Assembly: GCF_003044035.1 (NCBI RefSeq)
Contig: NZ_NVQC01000005.1
Span: forward strand, 1 to 6,128
Direction: 5' to 3'
DNA length: 6,128 nucleotides
Source: Candidatus Methylomirabilis limnetica
GTDB taxonomy: Bacteria > Methylomirabilota > Methylomirabilia > Methylomirabilales > Methylomirabilaceae
Shown here: positions 1 through 6,128 of the stretch, in pieces
Layout: every line of letters begins with the position of its first letter
How positions within the stretch are numbered: the first letter of the stretch is position 1
The notes under the pieces: model-generated
What the model was told of the DNA's origin: nothing
Seen by the model: the letters and a program-made list of their open reading frames with translations, nothing else
Database searches by the model: none
Position numbers and translations under genes: made by a program

Positions 1-16
1 ATCTATACTCCTGACG

Positions 17-127
17 AAACCCCTCCGCAATCCTTCGTAACCGGTAAATCCTGTTGCTGTTGCTTTTTCCCCACCTTCAGATATGATCCTTAATCAAACC
101 GGGCAAATTATGTGCCGGACGGTATTG
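17..127. repeat. Left arm of a perfect inverted repeat of at least 111 bp (partner 6018-6128)
   Basis: The reverse complement of 6018-6128, checked block by block, equals 17-127 with no mismatch. Pairing stops at 128/6017. The right arm runs into the window edge, so the true length is unknown. The inner end coincides with the first base of core copy 1 (127-137). Confidence 0.95.
60..87 (+). promoter_or_regulatory. Candidate sigma70-type promoter inside the inverted repeat, facing inward (mirror copy on the minus strand at 6058-6085)
   Basis: TTGCTT (60-65), 16-nt spacer, TATGAT (82-87): 3/6 and 5/6 matches to TTGACA/TATAAT. Sequence match only, no other support. Confidence 0.2.
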
Positions 128-416
128 GGACAGACACTATTTATCGTGACGATTCGTGGTGTGTACGGTCATGATCGTGCATGCCACGAATTACCCGAAC
201 CGTTGCATCCGGCCACCCGTATCATGCGAGACAACAAGGGAATGATCGCCAGGCGGTCTTTCGGAACGACAGCGATTCGAATGCGCACGATGACAGAGCG
301 GCCACTGCGAAGAGACGGGATCATCTGGGGGGGGGGTGCGCAGGACACTGGACGAGTAATACACGTGTCGCAGAGGGGAAGACCAAGAAGGGAAGTCAAT
401 AAATAGTGTCTGTCCC
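127..416 (+). mobile_element. Non-coding MITE-like element A (290 bp) bounded by inverted copies of the 11-nt core
   Basis: 127-144 GGGACAGACACTATTTAT is the exact reverse complement of 399-416 (18-bp perfect terminal inverted repeat). The body aligns to 2624-2908 with about 35 mismatches and 5 gap positions (hand alignment). The ORF open in A (83..406) is broken in copy B by a 1-nt indel and an in-frame TGA, so the conservation is not protein-coding. Confidence 0.75.
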
Positions 417-439
417 TATTTACTATATTTACTATTTAC
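417..439 (+). repeat. Short tandem repeat abutting core copy 2: TATTTAC TATATTTAC TATTTAC
   Basis: Units at 417-423, 424-432 and 433-439, starting on the first base after GTGTCTGTCCC. Confidence 0.9.
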
Positions 440-459
440 AAGAACAGCGAGAGAAAGTT

Positions 460-595
460 GTCATTGCGAACGAAGTGAAGCAATCTCGCATTGTTGCACT
501 GAGATTGCCGCGTACCCTGCGGGTGCTACTCAGAAACTGGCAAAGTGTCTGCCACCTGCGGGTCAGCCACCGCTGGATTGGGCACTCGCAATGAC
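460..595. repeat. REP-like nested imperfect palindrome
   Basis: The outer arms GTCATTGCGA (460-469) and TCGCAATGAC (586-595) are exact reverse complements. Inner hairpin: GCAATCTC (480-487) / GAGATTGC (501-508) with a 13-nt loop. CCTGCGGGT is repeated at 516-524 and 555-563. The overlapping ORF 406..594 looks like a by-product of the repeat. Confidence 0.6.
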
Positions 596-682
596 GTAAG
601 AAATCGAGTGGTTGCGAGGTCTATCGCTGTTCTTGGGCTGAAATACTTGCCGGACGCCTCAATGTGTTCTATAACTACTGAT

Positions 683-1021
683 ATGGATGATCAATACGTC
701 ACCCTCGCGCCGTCTCCTCTGATACTCCTGCCGGTCTACACCGGCATTACCTCTCTCGATGAGGCCGTTCGTGATCCGCGGGGGACCCGCCTGCTCTGGC
801 TTGAACTCCTGGTCAATGACGGCCTCGATCTTCGCCCGTGGTGGGAACGCCCGGAGGTTCGAGAGGCGTATCAGAAGGCATGCCGCTGGTACACCACGTA
901 CCGAAGCGTACTGGAAGCGGTACTGCCGCGCCCTCCTCTCCCTCCTGATCCTGGCCCGGTTGACCCCCGTGAGTACCGTCTGTTTGCGGAGGCAATAAGG
1001 TTTGTCTGCGCTCACGATTGA
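683..1021 (+). CDS. Hypothetical protein (112 aa from ATG 683), upstream partner of the nucleotidyltransferase gene
   Basis: Part of ORF 545..1021. The third-position GC bias typical of the other genes here begins about at ATG 683. The in-frame starts GTG 545 and ATG 662 lie in or next to the REP-like palindrome. There is no clear SD, so the start is uncertain. The stop overlaps the next gene by 20 nt. No family recognised. Confidence 0.45.
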   Translation: MDDQYVTLAPSPLILLPVYTGITSLDEAVRDPRGTRLLWLELLVNDGLDLRPWWERPEVREAYQKACRWYTTYRSVLEAVLPRPPLPPDPGPVDPREYRLFAEAIRFVCAHD

Positions 1022-1574
1022 TCAACTGACTGCGCTGCTTGCCGCCTACACCCATGAGACTGGGGTGCCTGTAGACCTTCTTCTGGTGGGTGGCCTCGCG
1101 CTCCAGGCGTATGGCTACACGGATCGCGCGACACAGGATGTGGACGGCGAGGTTGCCGGAGATCCTGAACACCTGAGCGCATTTCTGCGGCGACACCACG
1201 TCCCGGCCGACCTCGGAGAGAATCTCTCAAGCTGGTCAGTCATTGCCATGCCGCCTGGCTACCGCGATCGAGCCGTCGTACACCATACGCGACCTGGTCT
1301 TCGCCTGCGGCTCTTACACCCCACCGATTTCGTGATCGCAAAGCTCCGGCGTGGGACCGAGCTTGACCTGGACGATGCTGAGTATGTGGCGCGGCGGTTC
1401 CACGTGACTTCGGACACCGTGCGGCAGGCTGCGGAAGCGGCCCTCGCCGTCTCCCCGAAGGATACGGTGCTTTTCCTGTTCCGCATAACGGTCCAGGTGT
1501 TCTGTGCCCGACTGTCCAATGCGGGGACGCCCCCTTTGGAAAAGGGGGCGGGGGGGTTTTTACGGAACACTTAG
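1002..1574 (+). CDS. Nucleotidyltransferase-fold protein, AbiEii/DUF6036-like (190 aa)
   Basis: TTG start with GGAGG (988-992) 9 nt upstream. The N-terminal LLLVGGLALQAYGYTDRATQDVD fits the pol-beta-type signature (G-G/S, short spacer, D-x-D) as it appears in AbiEii/DUF6036-type proteins. HPTDFVIAKLRRGTELDLDDAEYV is typical of that group. The last ~15 codons run through a GC-rich palindromic repeat (PPLEKGAGGF...), so the native C-terminus may have been replaced. Confidence 0.6.
   Translation: MSALTIDQLTALLAAYTHETGVPVDLLLVGGLALQAYGYTDRATQDVDGEVAGDPEHLSAFLRRHHVPADLGENLSSWSVIAMPPGYRDRAVVHHTRPGLRLRLLHPTDFVIAKLRRGTELDLDDAEYVARRFHVTSDTVRQAAEAALAVSPKDTVLFLFRITVQVFCARLSNAGTPPLEKGAGGFLRNT
1528..1561 (+). 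repeat. GC-rich palindromic repeat unit (CGCCCCCTTT-GGA-AAAGGGGGCG) followed by G6T5; possible terminator-like hairpin
   Basis: The 10-bp stem 1528-1537 / 1541-1550 is exactly complementary, with a 3-nt loop, followed by GGGGGGTTTTT. It lies inside the 3' end of CDS 1002..1574, before its stop codon. Confidence 0.6.
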
Positions 1575-1606
1575 TGAGCGACAGGAAGGGAGAAACCCCC
1601 TTCAAT

Positions 1607-1625
1607 CCCCCTTTGCCAAAGGGGG
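1607..1625. repeat. Second GC-rich palindromic unit CCCCCTTTG-C-CAAAGGGGG
   Basis: 19-nt palindrome sharing the CCCCCTTT/AAAGGGGG arms with 1528-1550. The 10-mer TACGGAACAC also recurs at 1561-1570 and 1717-1726. Confidence 0.55.
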
Positions 1626-2130
1626 AGAAAAGACGGGTAATGACCAGATAGACCAAAGAGGAGGGGATATTAGATTCCTCCCTGCCTGTGCGTGGCTGTA
1701 CGCAGGCCGGTTCACCTACGGAACACCCGGAAGCACCTAAAAGAACTCTGCTAAGATAGGCTGCACTTACAGTGGCTTCCTGGCCGTCTGGAAAAGGAAA
1801 GTGGGAGGGTATTGCTCCCCCTCCCGCTTCGTCGTGATGTTGTTGACTCCCGCTAGACCTGCGGACCGTACTTGCCAAACGTTGCAATAATGTGGATCTC
1901 GTTTTTTCCTATCCCTTTTCCGTTTCTCCAGATTTTCCCTTTCAGCTCCTGCGCGTAGGAGCGTTATTTATTCTCAATTGGCCCCTGGGCCAAAAACAGA
2001 GGGATGTAGCCCATGACCGCGATTTGTCCCGAAGTTGCGGGAAAATGTCATTTACCGGATTATCCAGGCCGGTAGGCGTCAGAGCGATCTGGAGAGCAGT
2101 TCCATGAAAATCATTGAACCCGATCGCATT

Positions 2131-2196
2131 ATCGTGACCGCGAACAGCACGAATTGTCACGATAATAGTGTCTGTCCCTATTTTACCTATTTTATG
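2131..2196 (-). repeat. Inverted copy of the element left-end module (hairpin + core copy 3 + tandem TATTTTAYN units) without an A/B-type body
   Basis: Perfect 8-bp hairpin ATCGTGAC (2131-2138) / GTCACGAT (2156-2163) with a 17-nt loop, then AATA, then GTGTCTGTCCC (2168-2178), then TATTTTACC TATTTTATG (2179-2196). The reverse complement matches 127-175 of element A. Similarity to A/B is lost beyond the hairpin. Confidence 0.8.
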
Positions 2197-2198
2197 TC

Positions 2199-2238
2199 TA
2201 AGAAGGGATGTCAATAAATAGTGTCTGTCCCTATTTAC
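2199..2238 (+). repeat. Solo copy of the element right end (core copy 4)
   Basis: 2199-2238 matches 384-423 (the right end of element A plus its first TATTTAC unit) at 38 of 40 positions. Core at 2221-2231. No element body precedes it. Confidence 0.85.
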
Positions 2239-2603
2239 TCGGATCTGTGCACAAGTGGAGCGATAGGATCATAGTTAACTTCGACTCCCTTCTCTGCGCC
2301 GGGGGCCCCAATCACCAAGGCGACAGCACCTACTTCTTTGGCCTTGTCTCTGCACGGCCGCCAAGGTCTGTCGCAGCATCTATCAAGGAGACGGTCCGCT
2401 TAGCCTCTGAGTCGCCAAAACTCAAGAAAGAGCTACGACACGACGTGTTGGTCCGCGTGCCCCAGACAGGCACGGCGAGTGAGCCAGATCGTCCAGGAAG
2501 TCTTTGAGATCAATCCCGGGATTGCCAGAGTAACCTGTAGCGATTTGGCGGAGAACCTGATCCGACCCTACGGGTCCAAAGGACGAGGCTGGAGCTTGTG
2601 CCG

Positions 2604-2935
2604 TTAAATAAAAATAGAAAATAGGGACAGGCACTATCATCGTGACGATTCGTGATGCTTGCGGTCATGATCGTGCCTGTTACAGATTACCAGAACCGTT
2701 GCACCCGGCCACCCGTATCGTGTGACGGAACGAGGGAGTGATCGCCAGGCGGTCTTTCGGAACGACAACGATTCGAAAGCGGACGATGACAGAGCGGCCG
2801 ATGCAAAGAGACGGGTTCATCTGGGAGGTGCGCAGGACACTGGACGAGTCATACACGTGTGGCAGAGGGGAAGGCCAAGAAAGGATCTCAATAAATAGTG
2901 TCCGTCCCTATATCACCCCTATATCACCTATATCA
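2604..2935 (+). mobile_element. Non-coding MITE-like element B with both AT-rich flanks (core to core 2624-2908)
   Basis: The left flank 2604-2623 reads outward as TATTTTC TATTTTTA TTTAA. Then come core GGGACAGGCAC (2624-2634), hairpin 2639-2671, a body about 85% identical to A, core GTGTCCGTCCC (2898-2908), and TATATCACCCC TATATCACC TATATCA (2909-2935). Confidence 0.75.
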
Positions 2936-3051
2936 AGGATGGCTCACTGTCACCGAAGGGGAGTTGACGACACCCCGCATGAGGTGGACTGTAGGCGGAG
3001 CGTGAGTGTTTTGGTTCTCGTGAGTTGGACCATTAAAAAGGAGCGTCACGC

Positions 3052-3269
3052 ATGGGCGACCGGCTCTTAAGCGCGCAGGAGGTGGCGGCTCGGCTCAACC
3101 TGAAGGTGTGCACAGTGATGACTTGGTGGCGAAGGGCGACCTGTCAGCCCTCCGCTTTAGGAGAAAGCTCCGGATTCGGCCTGGCGCGGTGGATGCCTTG
3201 GTGACGGCGCGAGAACAGCCCGTGGCTGAGCACGGCGTTCAGAATCGGGTTTTTCTGCAGCCTCGTTAG
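3052..3269 (+). pseudogene. Excisionase/MerR-like HTH (HTH_17-type) DNA-binding protein, frameshifted
   Basis: AGGAG (3039-3043) lies 8 nt before ATG 3052. Frame 1 gives MGDRLLSAQEVAARLNLKVCTV, then nonsense to TGA 3202-3204. The -1 frame from about 3120 gives DLVAKGDLSALRFRRKLRIRPGAVDALV... to TAG 3267-3269. Joined together they match the excisionase-type pattern LLt..EvA..L.v...Tv..lv..G.L.a.r.gr..ri. This implies a 1-nt loss near 3118-3119, or a sequencing error. Confidence 0.6.
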
Positions 3270-3298
3270 GCATTCTTACGATTCTCTCATTTTAAATA

Positions 3299-3337
3299 GT
3301 TGCTGTCCCTATTATTCACTATTATTCTATTATTCAA
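3299..3337 (+). repeat. Degenerate solo end: core copy 7 (GTTGCTGTCCC) plus three tandem TATTATTC units
   Basis: Core variant at 3299-3309 (GT swapped to TG at positions 3-4), preceded by TTTTAAATA as in the right-end flank. It is followed by TATTATTCAC (3310-3319), TATTATTC (3320-3327) and TATTATTCAA (3328-3337). Confidence 0.7.
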
Positions 3338-3425
3338 CGTGTGAACCGATCCCACTTTTGAACGCGCGAGTTCTCGGTCATGGCCCTCTGGGCGGAACCG
3401 CGTGTAACGACACTGGAGTGACCAG

Positions 3426-4733
3426 ATGCGTCGTATTTTGTGCAGTCTCGCGGTCGTGCTGACCCCCATCCTGGCTTGGGCGGGGGTCGATCGCCCGCCG
3501 GTCACGTTTAATAAAGACGTCCTCCCGATCCTGCAGAGGAACTGTCAGGGATGCCACCGGCCTGGGGAAGCGGCGCCGATGCCGCTGCTGACCTACCAGG
3601 ATGCGCGACCTTGGATCAAGGCTATTCGTGATGCGGTCCTGCAACAGCGAATGCCGCCGTGGTTCGCCGACTCACAACACGGCAAGTTCGCCAACGATCG
3701 CTCGCTCTCGCAGGCCGAAATCGACACGCTGGTGGCCTGGGTCGACGGGGGCGCCCGCGAAGGAGACGCCGCCGATCTGCCGCCACCACGGGAGTTTGTC
3801 AAGGGATGGAACATCGGCCGACCGGACCTGGTCTTCGAAATGCCGAGGGAATTCCACGTTCCGGATTCCGGCACGATCCAGTATCAGTACGTTGTGATAC
3901 CCACCGGCTTCACAGGGGACAGGTGGGTACAGATGGCAGAGATACGTCCAGGCAATAGGGCGTTGGTCCATCATGTCATGGTGTACCTTCGCGAGCCGGG
4001 GTCGAAGTGGCTGCACTGGGCTAAGCCCGGCGAGCCGTTTGAGGTACGGAGCTTGCGAGACGGGTCGCGACGATTCGATCTCCTGGTCGGCTTTGTTCCG
4101 GGCAGTGTACCGCAGATGCTAAAACCCGGTCAGGCCAAGCTTATCAAGGCTGGATCCGACCTGGTTTTTGAGCTGCACTATACGGCGAACGGGAAAGCCG
4201 GGACGGATCGCACCCGTATGGGCCTGATTTTCGCCAAGGAACCGCCCGTGGAGCAAGTCAGTACTATTTGGGCCAAGAACCGCGTATTCGTGATCCCCGC
4301 CGGAGCGCCGAATCACCGCGTGGACGCCGAGCGGACACTTGATCATGACGTGACTCTACTCGCCCTGCTCCCCCACATGCATCTGCGGGGGAAATCTGTG
4401 CAGTACCGGGCAGTCTACCCGACGGGGGAATCACAGATCCTGCTCGATGTACCGAGATACAGCGTCAACTGGCAGCTTTCTTACTATCTGAAGGAGCCTC
4501 TACTTCTCCCCAAGGGGACGCGTATCGAGTGCACAGGCTACTTCGACAATTCAGCGAACAATCCCAACAATCCGAATTCGGCGGTCGCGGTTCGGTACGG
4601 TAAACAGAGCCAGGACGAGATGATGGTCTGCCTCATGGATGTGACTTCTCGACGCCGCGATGAATCCGGGGCTTCTATTCAAAAGGGAGATGGCGAGGTT
4701 CTGCAACGCCCGTCGCCCGAGCCGCCTGACTGA
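3426..4733 (+). CDS. Secreted cytochrome c domain fused to a copper type II ascorbate-dependent monooxygenase (PHM/DBH)-like domain (435 aa)
   Basis: GGAG lies 7 nt before ATG 3426. The Sec-type signal peptide is MRRILCSLAVVLTPILAWA. The heme c motif CQGCH is at 3543-3557. The full PHM-type ligand pattern has matching spacing: HH (aa 182-183, nt 3969-3974), H251 (4176-4178), HMH (aa 317-319, 4374-4382) and DEMM (Met 399/400, 4620-4625). It is the longest ORF in the window. Confidence 0.8.
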   Translation: MRRILCSLAVVLTPILAWAGVDRPPVTFNKDVLPILQRNCQGCHRPGEAAPMPLLTYQDARPWIKAIRDAVLQQRMPPWFADSQHGKFANDRSLSQAEIDTLVAWVDGGAREGDAADLPPPREFVKGWNIGRPDLVFEMPREFHVPDSGTIQYQYVVIPTGFTGDRWVQMAEIRPGNRALVHHVMVYLREPGSKWLHWAKPGEPFEVRSLRDGSRRFDLLVGFVPGSVPQMLKPGQAKLIKAGSDLVFELHYTANGKAGTDRTRMGLIFAKEPPVEQVSTIWAKNRVFVIPAGAPNHRVDAERTLDHDVTLLALLPHMHLRGKSVQYRAVYPTGESQILLDVPRYSVNWQLSYYLKEPLLLPKGTRIECTGYFDNSANNPNNPNSAVAVRYGKQSQDEMMVCLMDVTSRRRDESGASIQKGDGEVLQRPSPEPPD

Positions 4734-4965
4734 ATCCTTGGGATTTGGCGCGGCCGAATCAGCGATGGGTAGGACTCACGGTATCTTTCCGCGTTTGGTC
4801 GCAGTGATCGGGCTGTGCTATTTGCGCCAACGGGCCACGATGGGACGCAAGATCGGAGACTACATCGTACAGAACCACCTCAAGCCTGTCCGCTAACTAA
4901 CAGAGGGGATGGTCGGGCGGTCTTCCTTAAAGGTAGAAGGAAAGGTGCTCTGAGGCATGCCCGGC

Positions 4966-5178
4966 CTAACCGGTAAGGGGGTTGTGCTTCGCCAGGATCG
5001 GCTCCCGATAGCGCTGGAAGCCGTTACGCCAAATCTCCCAGAGGCGCTGATTCTTGAAGGTCCCTTCGGAATAGGCAGCCTCGGGGAGGCCAATTGCCCC
5101 GCTGACCTCCCCTGTTAGCATGATGGCACAGACGCTCACATTGCACCCGAACCATTGGCCGTAATGTCGCGCAGCGGC
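4966..5178 (-). pseudogene. Decayed radical-SAM SPASM-domain fragment (copy 2)
   Basis: The open frame reads ...GQWFGCNVSVCAIMLTGEVSGAIGLPEAAYSEGTFKNQRLWEIWRNGFQRYREPILAKHNPLTG*. It keeps the C-x10-G-x4 spacing of the SPASM motif, but Ala replaces the closing Cys. It also lacks the CX2CX5CX3C block. No radical-SAM core lies upstream. Confidence 0.5.
4993..5076. repeat. 84-bp direct repeat, copy 1 (partner 5357-5440)
   Basis: 77 of 84 positions are identical to 5357-5440 by hand alignment, at an offset of 364 bp. It encodes the shared QRL.EIWRNGFQRYREPIL segment of the two SPASM fragments on the minus strand. Confidence 0.9.
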
Positions 5179-5243
5179 TTATGTTTCGTCAGCGTTGGTT
5201 TCGTGTACGGTTGCTTTGGAGCCGACGTGACACCGTTCTTCAT
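5136..5243 (-). CDS. Small ORF, 35 aa (MKNGVTSAPKQPYTKPTLTKHKPLRDITANGSGAM); speculative peptide gene
   Basis: GGAGGAGG ends 6 nt before the ATG (5243-5241). The ATG overlaps the TGA of the upstream fragment as ATGA. Its 3' third overlaps the SPASM-like frame of 4966-5178 in a different frame, which argues against it being real. Confidence 0.2.
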   Translation of the reverse strand: MKNGVTSAPKQPYTKPTLTKHKPLRDITANGSGAM

Positions 5244-5572
5244 GCGTTTCCTCCTCCTTCCCAGGGTCGTTTCAGACAGTGACGATCGCCCACGCGCATT
5301 CCGAACTTCCCACCACCGCAGGTAGGGGGGTAGTAGCAGACGCTACACTCCTCGGTCAGGATCGGTTCCCGATAGCGCTGGAAGCCGTTACGCCAAATCT
5401 CCCTGAGGCGCTGATCCTTGATGGGCCCTTCGAAATCGGCCACAGCATACCACGTCAAGTCGGTCAGATCAACCCAGCGAGGGGCCCTCACGTCTTCCGG
5501 CTTGTCTGTTCCGTTGTGCCCCAGGTTATCGGCATTGGGGATCATGCGATCTCCCGGCGTCAAGTCTTCCAC
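5240..5572 (-). pseudogene. Radical-SAM SPASM-domain C-terminal fragment (copy 1, 110 aa ORF)
   Basis: The fragment ...DQRLREIWRNGFQRYREPILTEECSVCYYPPTCGGGK carries CX2CX5CX3 with Lys in place of the final Cys. The N-terminal 50 aa are unlike a radical-SAM core. A stop codon lies immediately upstream of GTG 5572. An alternative ATG at 5545 has GGGAG 5 nt upstream. Confidence 0.5.
5357..5440. repeat. 84-bp direct repeat, copy 2 (partner 4993-5076)
   Basis: See 4993-5076. Confidence 0.9.
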
Positions 5573-5990
5573 AATTTAACTGCTGTCTTCACGCAGTCAG
5601 GTTGGCCGCTCCATATATATGGTAGGCTACTGAGCATTGCTTCCCCGTCCTTGTACGCGAAAAACTGCCTTCAGCGTTGCTTTCCTCTCCTGGTTACATA
5701 CCATCGCATGCCGAAGGTGAAGCTTGAGCTTCAAGTTTGCTCTCTGATTGAGTGGCCAGTTGCCAGAAAGCGAGCTCTTGTTGGTAGTGGAAGCCCTTGA
5801 GCCCAGACATGTAGTGAATCTGGGCCTTCACCCATAGTGAAAGCGCGATGGACGATATCCTAAGTCGATTCGGTATCGACAAGCAAACTAAGGACACCGG
5901 CCGTGGCGTTATCCGGCGGCTACAGAAGCTGCGGTACCTGTACGGCGTGATCTGGGCGGAACTCCGATCAAAGGTGCGACTCCCTGTCCG

Positions 5991-6018
5991 AAAATTAAAA
6001 TAAAATAGGGACAGACAC
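5991..6018 (+). repeat. Left-end-type module truncated at the core: AT-rich flank + core copy 8
   Basis: AAAATTAAAATAAAATA (5991-6007) reads outward as TATTTTA TTTTAA TTTT. It is followed by GGGACAGACAC (6008-6018), which is joined directly to the inverted repeat instead of to the hairpin flank. Confidence 0.8.
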
Positions 6019-6128
6019 AATACCGTCCGGCACATAATTTGCCCGGTTTGATTAAGGATCATATCTGAAGGTGGGGAAAAAGCAACAGCAACAGGATTTA
6101 CCGGTTACGAAGGATTGCGGAGGGGTTT
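6018..6128. repeat. Right arm of the perfect inverted repeat (partner 17-127), truncated by the window edge
   Basis: See 17-127. Confidence 0.95.

Follow-up and report, generated by a model that had tools for sequence, protein, structure and literature searches.

Two long repeats in a Candidatus Methylomirabilis limnetica contig are very probably internally deleted copies of a TIRtron-like tyrosine-transposase unit

What are the two repeats of nearly 300 nt in a 6,128-nt stretch of Candidatus Methylomirabilis limnetica DNA (contig NZ_NVQC01000005.1, positions 1 to 6,128, forward strand; this whole stretch is called the window), and how did they come to be there? A preliminary description of these elements, which we call A and B, offered two answers: a non-autonomous transposon such as a miniature inverted-repeat transposable element (MITE), or an expressed structured RNA associated with a mobile element. 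Here, we describe the computational analysis that followed. The repeat is real and its explanation is ordinary: it is the decayed derivative of a known, poorly studied kind of transposase unit. A and B are very probably non-autonomous, internally deleted copies of a Y1/HUH tyrosine-transposase unit of the TIRtron/TIRYT kind with 17-21-bp ends (AAATAGGGACAGACACTATTT).

The parent unit and its deleted form

A (296 nt) and B (291 nt) are 86.1% identical over their full length (BLAST E=5e-88), close to the ~85% given in the preliminary description. The termini of A form an inverted repeat of 21 nt (124-144 with 399-419, 95% identity) that contains the perfect 18 bp reported before (127-144 / 399-416), and the G10 tract, described as 4 nt longer than in B, is longer than in every other copy as well. 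The 17-mer ATAGGGACAGACACTAT occurs eight times in the 6.1-kb window with up to three mismatches, against 0.01 expected, starting at 124, 2621 and 6005 on the forward strand and at 403, 2165, 2218, 2895 and 3296 on the reverse strand. The earlier account had omitted two isolated end fragments and two solo repeats (Table 1).

We searched one genome per species with the terminal 18-mer ATAGGGACAGACACTATT and obtained at least 120 stretches, where ~17 chance matches are calculated for uniform base composition. Hosts among the matches listed include Elusimicrobia, Omnitrophota, Nitrospirota, Ca. Methylomirabilis, Brocadiaceae, Desulfobacterota and others; matches in Parasalinivibrio, Pelistega, Methanomethylovorans and a Bifidobacteriaceae bin are probably due to chance or misbinning. 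The two outer A's beside the 18-mer are conserved too, though they lie outside the search pattern. Viral contigs gave no match to the 18-mer. Among the matches listed, 89 repeats are unpaired, 24 form inverted doublets of 41-69 nt and 10 are pairs at 71-200 nt, while two further groups of six pairs each are spaced at 290-294 nt and at 744-849 nt. In each pair of 744-849 nt, inverted copies of the 17-mer mark the two ends and enclose one open reading frame (ORF) of 223-230 aa. It is through these full-length relatives, found via the terminal 18-mer, that the link to a transposase became visible.

The parent unit of ~747 nt consists of an inverted repeat, a TTGACA-type promoter, a 225-aa Y1/HUH gene and a second inverted repeat. 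Its protein starts with MPRIARIV.GHPYHVTQRGN and has the motifs NHVHFIV, HLWQGRF and RYVERNPVRA, in which H60-V-H62 is the HUH motif and R-Y119-VERNP the tyrosine motif. The full-length relatives match Pfam Y1_Tnp (PF01797, ‘transposase IS200 like’) at E=6e-17, with 62 bits against a cut-off of 23. The NCBIfam model REP_Tyr_transpos gives 74.2 bits on the parent protein, below its cut-off of 80, and transpos_IS200 gives 25.3 bits against 55; a PDB sequence search with the 225-aa protein found no match at E<=0.01. The transposases flanked by exact ATAGGGACAGACACTATT in Elusimicrobia, Omnitrophota, Nitrospirota and Methylomirabilis are 47-57% identical to the protein of one intact copy, L121 (collected loci are given as L and a number). 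A conserved C-terminal RGRPRK weakly resembles an AT-hook (AT_hook E=0.35, 11.3 bits versus a cut-off of 17.4). We use the label ‘promoter’ because the TTGACA hexamer is conserved in relatives, where it lies 4-7 nt past the repeat in most full-length units and the ATG follows 55-58 nt from the outer edge of the repeat; a promoter scan called none in A, nor at the expected place in L121 (spacer of 15 or poor -10 box).

Beyond the repeats, the adjacent DNA is rich in A/T. With its A/T arms, a lone repeat folds weakly (-3.4 to -5.1 kcal/mol) and a doublet of ~48 nt folds to -24 kcal/mol, which is compatible with recognition on single-stranded DNA. We also observed elements of ~117 nt in a Methylomirabilis bin (L071:6508-6624 and L099:3896-4012) that have the same terminal repeats around an interior unlike the transposase gene, so the ends also bound short elements of a different kind.

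When aligned with the full-length units L121, L081 and L041, the short copies, A and B among them, cover nt 1-147 and 603-748 and leave the intervening stretch unmatched. The 455-nt gap falls between GAACGA and GAAACGA in the parent, a microhomology at the break points. It takes out codons ~31-182, including H60-V-H62 and Tyr119, and leaves codons 1-30 and ~182-225. The central block in which the preliminary description had counted only 3 changes does differ between A and B at just three positions around 244-303, and it proves to be the point where two conserved coding stretches meet, ...NDRQAVFRND and (A)IRxxTMTxRP.... The statement that no reading frame is conserved was only partly correct, since remnants of the transposase gene are recognisable in two frames, namely codons 1-30 at 181-270 and the final 18 codons at 350-406.

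With the 73-codon ORF of A as query, a protein search returned only eight near-identical small ORFs, and their contigs hold the same ~292-nt element in unrelated surroundings. Pfam finds nothing in the short ORFs of the elements, and a profile search with the short ORF gave matches in 546 proteins that are limited to ORF positions 1-33. Scanning metagenomes for a junction-specific pattern added further short copies, for a total of 28 in different flanks; the comparisons of elements below are based on these 28 copies, with some statistics on a set of 16. All 28 share the same junction, an extra 1-nt deletion and the change of the -35-like TTGACA to GTGAC. A neighbour-joining tree unites them in a single star-like clade whose sister is full-length L121, a pattern that points to one deletion followed by amplification. 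L121 itself lies in the same metagenome-assembled genome (MAG) as the short copies L017, L043 and L046 (JANGEZ01, Ca. Methylomirabilis sp. bin48). Pairwise identity of the short copies has a median of 87% and a maximum of only 94%, so the burst of amplification is old. Among copies retrieved independently of the repeat, the terminal repeats are slightly more conserved than the interior (1.03 versus 1.73 changes per site, P~0.04).

These observations suggest a simple history. A single 455-bp deletion between short direct repeats took away codons ~31-182, with the HUH motif and the catalytic-type tyrosine, and left both ends with ~130 nt of subterminal DNA on each side. The shortened form would then have multiplied in a Methylomirabilis-like lineage, presumably mobilised in trans by the enzyme of intact copies. 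The sequences themselves demonstrate the homology, the deletion, the common ends, the single origin, the many contexts, the decay and the recombination between copies. We infer the mobilisation, and with it the chemistry: the tyrosine enzyme would recognise the shared ends and move whatever they enclose, which would make the short form a parasite of the long one. The copies subsequently decayed neutrally, and today they serve mainly as dispersed homology for recombination, shuffling small accessory cassettes between them.

Points against movement and competing explanations

Several points weigh against this history. The 28 copies show no direct repeat across both flanks that could be a target-site duplication, and no clean spanning empty site was found among the collected loci, where searches with joined flanks gave artefacts only; there is one tentative paralogous empty-site comparison, L155 versus L068. 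Movement is thus deduced from the many contexts; such absences are expected for HUH/Y1 elements. The closest copies, at only 94% identity, give no sign that the elements would be active at present, and the window contains no full-length partner. MAG bins can be contaminated, which weakens the argument from a shared genome. A Pfam scan at E<=10 found no C-terminal domain of the helix-turn-helix (HTH) type (Bac_DnaA_C, HTH_23, HTH_28) in the tail of the parent protein, and experimental transposition of TIRtrons is absent from the literature searched.

The suggestion of a non-autonomous transposon is essentially right. There is a full-length cognate with the same ends, and the copies occur in 28 flanks. 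They differ from a classical MITE in showing no target-site duplication and in a partner that is a Y1/HUH enzyme and no DDE transposase. Of the two marks by which the preliminary description would have recognised an ordinary MITE, the cognate transposase gene with matching ends was found and clean target-site duplications were absent from the 28 copies.

Exchange between copies by recombination can be seen directly. In two pairs of loci, the left flank and the leftmost ~40-110 nt of the element are common to both members, after which the sequence passes to a different copy and a different right flank. On a JGI contig, the element in the place of B (L002:6-297) takes its leftmost ~100 nt from A, together with the ATT junction to an ACAGT flank that resembles sequence X (described below), and the remainder from B; either two copies recombined or the assembly is chimeric here. 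Strain variants of the region are distinguished by entire cassettes whose break points fall at the repeats. In L164, A adjoins a type I restriction operon and its left end has the intact ATAGGG; in L163, A is absent. L163 and L165 both have a Fic cassette in place of window 2238-5990, and the right-end fragment at 2200-2234 is missing from L165. Strains L002, L163 and L165 continue at position 6005 into a third mini-element, which is complete. The region is assembled, mosaic-like, from small accessory or toxin-antitoxin-like cassettes. A pair of DUF6036 nucleotidyltransferase ORFs (119 and 190 aa; window 545-1574 and L163-L165) is kept at 99% identity in at least three neighbourhoods, with chemotaxis/histidine-kinase genes, the type I restriction operon and the Fic cassette.

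Could recombination account for the whole pattern? In that case the copies would have spread by segmental duplication and homologous recombination only, or would be repeated identical microhomology deletions of resident full-length copies. The visible exchanges, the microhomology at the deletion ends and the failure to find either a target-site duplication or an empty site all agree with this. However, homology between copies ends at the repeats or a few AT-rich nt beyond them, in 28 unrelated flanks, and the short copies form one clade whose shared 1-nt deletion and TTGACA to GTGAC change are absent from full-length copies. We consider spread without transposition improbable.

It is still less probable that the 72-73-codon ORF (the N-terminal 30 aa, a linker and often the RGRPRK tail) encodes a functional small protein, for example a truncated DNA-binding inhibitor of the transposase. 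The ATG is lost in 9 of the 28 copies and early stops occur in 4. Variable sites are evenly spread over codon positions 1, 2 and 3 (22, 22 and 20 of 30 each), total changes show no excess at the third position (77, 67 and 39), and amino-acid identity (61-79%) is lower than nucleotide identity (83-91%). The C-terminus changes frame from copy to copy, the stop is trivial, as TAA and TAG overlap at the repeat, and the -35-like hexamer is degraded, with no promoter called. In favour of a functional protein, an ORF of 72-74 codons is present in 13 of the 28 copies, a second 1-nt deletion in the consensus brings back the native C-terminal frame, and gene callers predicted the ORF in 8 contigs. The ORF is decaying.

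The proposal of a structured non-coding RNA tied to a mobile element found no support, and we give it almost no credence. Both strands do fold better than shuffles (z = -4.65 and -5.15), and a hairpin of 16 pairs (columns 28-70) reaches across both start codon and promoter-like region, with changes that are mostly compatible with G-U pairing. The terminal repeats and this start-codon hairpin explain the low folding energy of both strands. We rejected the hairpin as a conserved feature: it is missing from most full-length relatives and confined to the short lineage and, in part, L121. No Rfam family matches within the elements at E<=1. In RNAalifold, the covariation terms are tiny (-0.21 kcal/mol for 16 copies and -0.57 kcal/mol for 28), double changes occur in just 3 of 82 and 5 of 67 pairs, each in one sequence, and none of five measures beats shuffles, since 49 to 248 of 500 shuffles reach the observed value. 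The middle of the predicted fold shifts as sequences are added, and the sequence is fully accounted for as a gene remnant. Two observations once made in favour of an RNA also fell away. Conservation described as patchy has a longest invariant run of 6 columns, where permutation gives an expectation of 6.5, and the candidate helix ATCAT/ATGAT appears in neither consensus fold (16 copies; 28 copies). A permissive Rfam scan of the whole window gave a sole match outside the elements, below threshold, to SMAD5-AS1_2 (E=0.47).

Lastly, the quasi-palindromic 17-mers could be sites of an integron- or shufflon-like recombination that assembles cassettes, with the ~290-bp units as spacers or attachment regions, an idea suggested by the two ATAGKGWC half-sites of the 17-mer, by break points at repeats (2183/2184, 2237 and 5991) and by the mosaics of DUF6036 nucleotidyltransferase, Fic, HTH and restriction-modification cassettes in the window and its strain variants, but scarcely credible given that the arrays have no accompanying recombinase gene, the units are demonstrably transposase-gene remnants, the switch occurs inside the element where both partners are whole, as in homologous recombination, and the repeats are unlike attC (GTTRRRY).

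Comparison with known systems

The closest published relatives are TIRtrons, or TIRYTs, in which a RAYT-like gene sits between inverted repeats with a common GGGGWSAS motif, while solitary, dimeric and clustered repeats are found as well (Di Nocera 2013, PMC3733652). TIRYTs correspond to subclass 2.1 of TnpA-Y1 (Quentin 2018, PMC6006769) and to RAYT Group 1 (Bertels 2017, PMC5581495). Subclass 2.1 is characterized by NHVH, W[EQ] and Y[IV]xLNP motifs, a length of ~238 aa, a serine motif in the proximal tail, C-terminal domains of the HTH type and the absence of REPs (PMC6006769).

Our parent unit fits this description. Inverted repeats stand at a fixed distance on either side of a RAYT-like Y1/HUH gene (NHVH, WQ, Y-x-x-x-N-P, WSS), single, dimeric and clustered repeats occur too, and the distribution across phyla is patchy. 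By motifs and length, the protein fits subclass 2.1 (Quentin 2018): it has NHVH, HLWQ, YVERNP (R for L) and WKWSS in 223-230 aa. The repeat core AGGGACAG fits GGGGWSAS in part, at seven of the eight positions, with A at the first G. There are also differences. The parent's repeat starts with ATAGGG and not GGGG, its protein has the AT-hook-like RGRPRK tail in place of HTH domains, the window holds only deletion derivatives without a catalytic core, and the hosts are others, namely Methylomirabilis, Nitrospirota, Omnitrophota, Elusimicrobia and more. Mini-elements made of gene remnants are not described in the accounts of TIRYTs within the literature searched (PMC3733652; PMC6006769).

Plasmid homologues with 33-38% identity have the same layout and related ends (AAAGGGGACAGA...). 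The ends are TTAAAAGGGGTCAGACCCC for the R. rubrum plasmid homologue and AAAGGGGACAGATTTATTTTCCC... (also as AAAGGGGACAGATT...) for that of P. aeruginosa, and GGGGTCAG and GGGGACAG are exact matches to GGGGWSAS. These ends agree with the consensus published for TIRYTs (PMC3733652; PMC6006769).

Three other groups are comparable in part. As in REPIN/REP-RAYT systems, the enzyme is a homologous Y1 protein (REP_Tyr_transpos, 74 bits), the gene lies between inverted short repeats that also form hairpin doublets (24 in the sampled loci), and short repeats rely on a gene in trans. Unlike in those systems, the repeats lack both the GT[AG]G foot and the G+C-rich stem, the parent scores under the NCBIfam family cut-off, the same 18-mer is found across many phyla rather than being species-specific, and the copies contain gene remnants. 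With MITEs derived from insertion sequences (IS), A and B share a short, non-coding form, terminal inverted repeats, the ends of an autonomous partner, many contexts and a burst of single origin followed by decay; they differ in having no target-site duplication and a partner that is an HUH tyrosine enzyme, not a DDE transposase. IS200/IS605 elements have the same Y1_Tnp fold family and likewise no target-site duplication. Here, however, the match to transpos_IS200 is weak (25.3 bits versus 55), the tyrosine motif is Y...NP (YVERNP) and not Y...Q, inverted repeats form the ends where IS200/IS605 has two subterminal hairpins of like orientation, and there is no tnpB.

Just outside many repeats we found what we call a junction stutter, in which 4-6 nt of flank and the first 3-5 nt of the repeat (...NNNNATAG(G)) are repeated in tandem 2-4 times. 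Its positions in the window are given in Table 1; examples elsewhere are L079:1325-1371 and L080:356-402. A stutter is present at 49 of 189 repeat ends, from many phyla, versus 3 of 189 on the inner side, and 4.25 are expected for shuffled flanks. The number of units varies among near-identical strains, with an extra TTTAATGTCCCTAT in L163 at window 2182. The stutter may be a footprint of enzyme action or of slippage.

A bolder interpretation, which we regard as doubtful, would take these features together as a mobile system of its own across phyla. Its Y1/HUH enzyme with an AT-hook-like tail would act on one conserved 21-bp end (AAATAGGGACAGACACTATTT) by a chemistry unlike that of IS200/IS605 and DDE transposases, the junction stutter would be its footprint, and the 292-bp gene-less form would be the first natural minimal substrate. 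If this were true, anything between two such ends could be moved in trans, and there would be a direct way to test how RAYT-like repeats spread.

The reading of A and B as internally deleted TIRtron/TIRYT-kind units has consequences without this extension. RAYT-like tyrosine transposases are very widespread, and how or whether they move DNA is unsettled. In the literature searched, TIRtrons have been described by comparative genomics only. An enzyme-less derivative with both ends, amplified from a single origin alongside an intact copy, provides indirect evidence that the ends are sufficient in cis and that the enzyme acts in trans, and the 21-bp end and the junction stutter offer concrete substrates and read-outs for testing in vitro. 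For annotation, the result eliminates a mistaken RNA candidate together with a family of ~72-aa ‘hypothetical proteins’ that are spurious, and it accounts for assembly breaks and rearrangements of these organisms at the repeats.

Other features of the window

Sequence X lies at both ends of the window (1-123 and 6022-6128) in inverted orientation, with 100% identity over 107 nt and 96% over 126 nt when the motif is included. Each copy abuts the 11-nt core of the repeat, GGGACAGACAC, in direct orientation. X contains no ORF, and comparisons with Rfam, the fetched loci, viral contigs, JGI metagenome contigs and plasmids gave no match. The arrangement resembles an insertion with inverted-repeat ends that entered a terminal repeat and duplicated 11 bp; two IS copies in inverted orientation would look similar.

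Table 1. Elements A and B, their internal landmarks and related repeats in the window
Feature	Position	Strand	Remarks
Element A, internally deleted tyrosine-transposase unit (probable mini-TIRtron), 296 nt	124-419	+	76-81% identity to L081/L121 nt 1-147 and 603-748
Left terminal inverted repeat of A, ATTGGGACAGACACTAT	124-140	+	Outer 3 nt changed at contact with sequence X
Promoter-like degenerate stretch in A: GTGACG, 17 nt, TCATGA	146-174	+	From left-end comparison; full-length relatives have TTGACA here
Remnant of transposase codons 1-30, MPRITRTVASGHPYHARQQGNDRQAVFRND	181-270	+	Aligns to N-terminus of 225-aa proteins
Deletion junction CGGAACGAC / AGCGATTCG, between 270 and 271	262-279	+	455 nt of parent gone
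Remnant of codons ~182-199, AIRMRTMTERPLRRDGIIW	272-328	+	Different frame
G10 tract	327-336	+	4-nt expansion private to A; 27 of 27 other copies GGGAGG-like
Remnant of last 18 codons, GRVIHVSQRGRPRREVNK and stop	350-406	+	Includes AT-hook-like RGRPRK
Right terminal inverted repeat of A	403-419	-
Stutter outside A, TTACTAT ATTTACTAT TTA	420-438	+	Period 9
Isolated left-end fragment: repeat and ~40 nt, ends just before ATG	2126-2181	-	Opposite orientation to A and B; 85% over 59 nt
Stutter	2182-2198
Isolated right-end fragment: 18 nt of interior and repeat	2200-2234	+	98% identical to 385-424
Stutter	2607-2620
Element B, second probable mini-TIRtron, 291 nt	2621-2911	+	Start codon lost (CTG at 2677); deletion junction 2766/2767; C-terminal remnant 2842-2898
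Left terminal inverted repeat of B	2621-2637	+
Right terminal inverted repeat of B	2895-2911	-
Stutter outside B, ATCACCCCTATATCACCTATATCA	2912-2935	+	Period 11
Solo terminal repeat, slightly degenerate	3296-3312	-	Stutter alongside at 3313-3335
Solo terminal repeat	6005-6021	+	Inner side replaced by sequence X

An unrelated repeat of ~197 nt adjoins A at 439-635, with the ends CAAGAACAGCGAGAGA and TCTATCGCTGTTCTTG. A copy with 95% identity lies in L138:870-1064, inside a mini-element, and has a 9-bp duplication (GGGTAATCC) on both sides. This repeat is a classical MITE.

In the interval from the right repeat of B to the solo repeat at 3296, two overlapping short ORFs (3052-3269) together resemble a frameshifted excisionase-type HTH gene (Pfam HTH_17 weak, E=0.14). 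Further along, an 84-nt direct repeat (4993-5076 and 5357-5440, 92% identical) lies within ORF fragments on the minus strand at 4966-5139 and 5240-5572. These resemble the C-terminal end of radical-SAM/SPASM proteins (Pfam SPASM weak, E=0.086) and are probably duplicated gene fragments. Finally, two self-complementary 19-mers, CCCCCTTTGGAAAAGGGGG (1530-1548) and CCCCCTTTGCCAAAGGGGG (1607-1625), lie 58 nt apart at and after the end of the DUF6036 gene.

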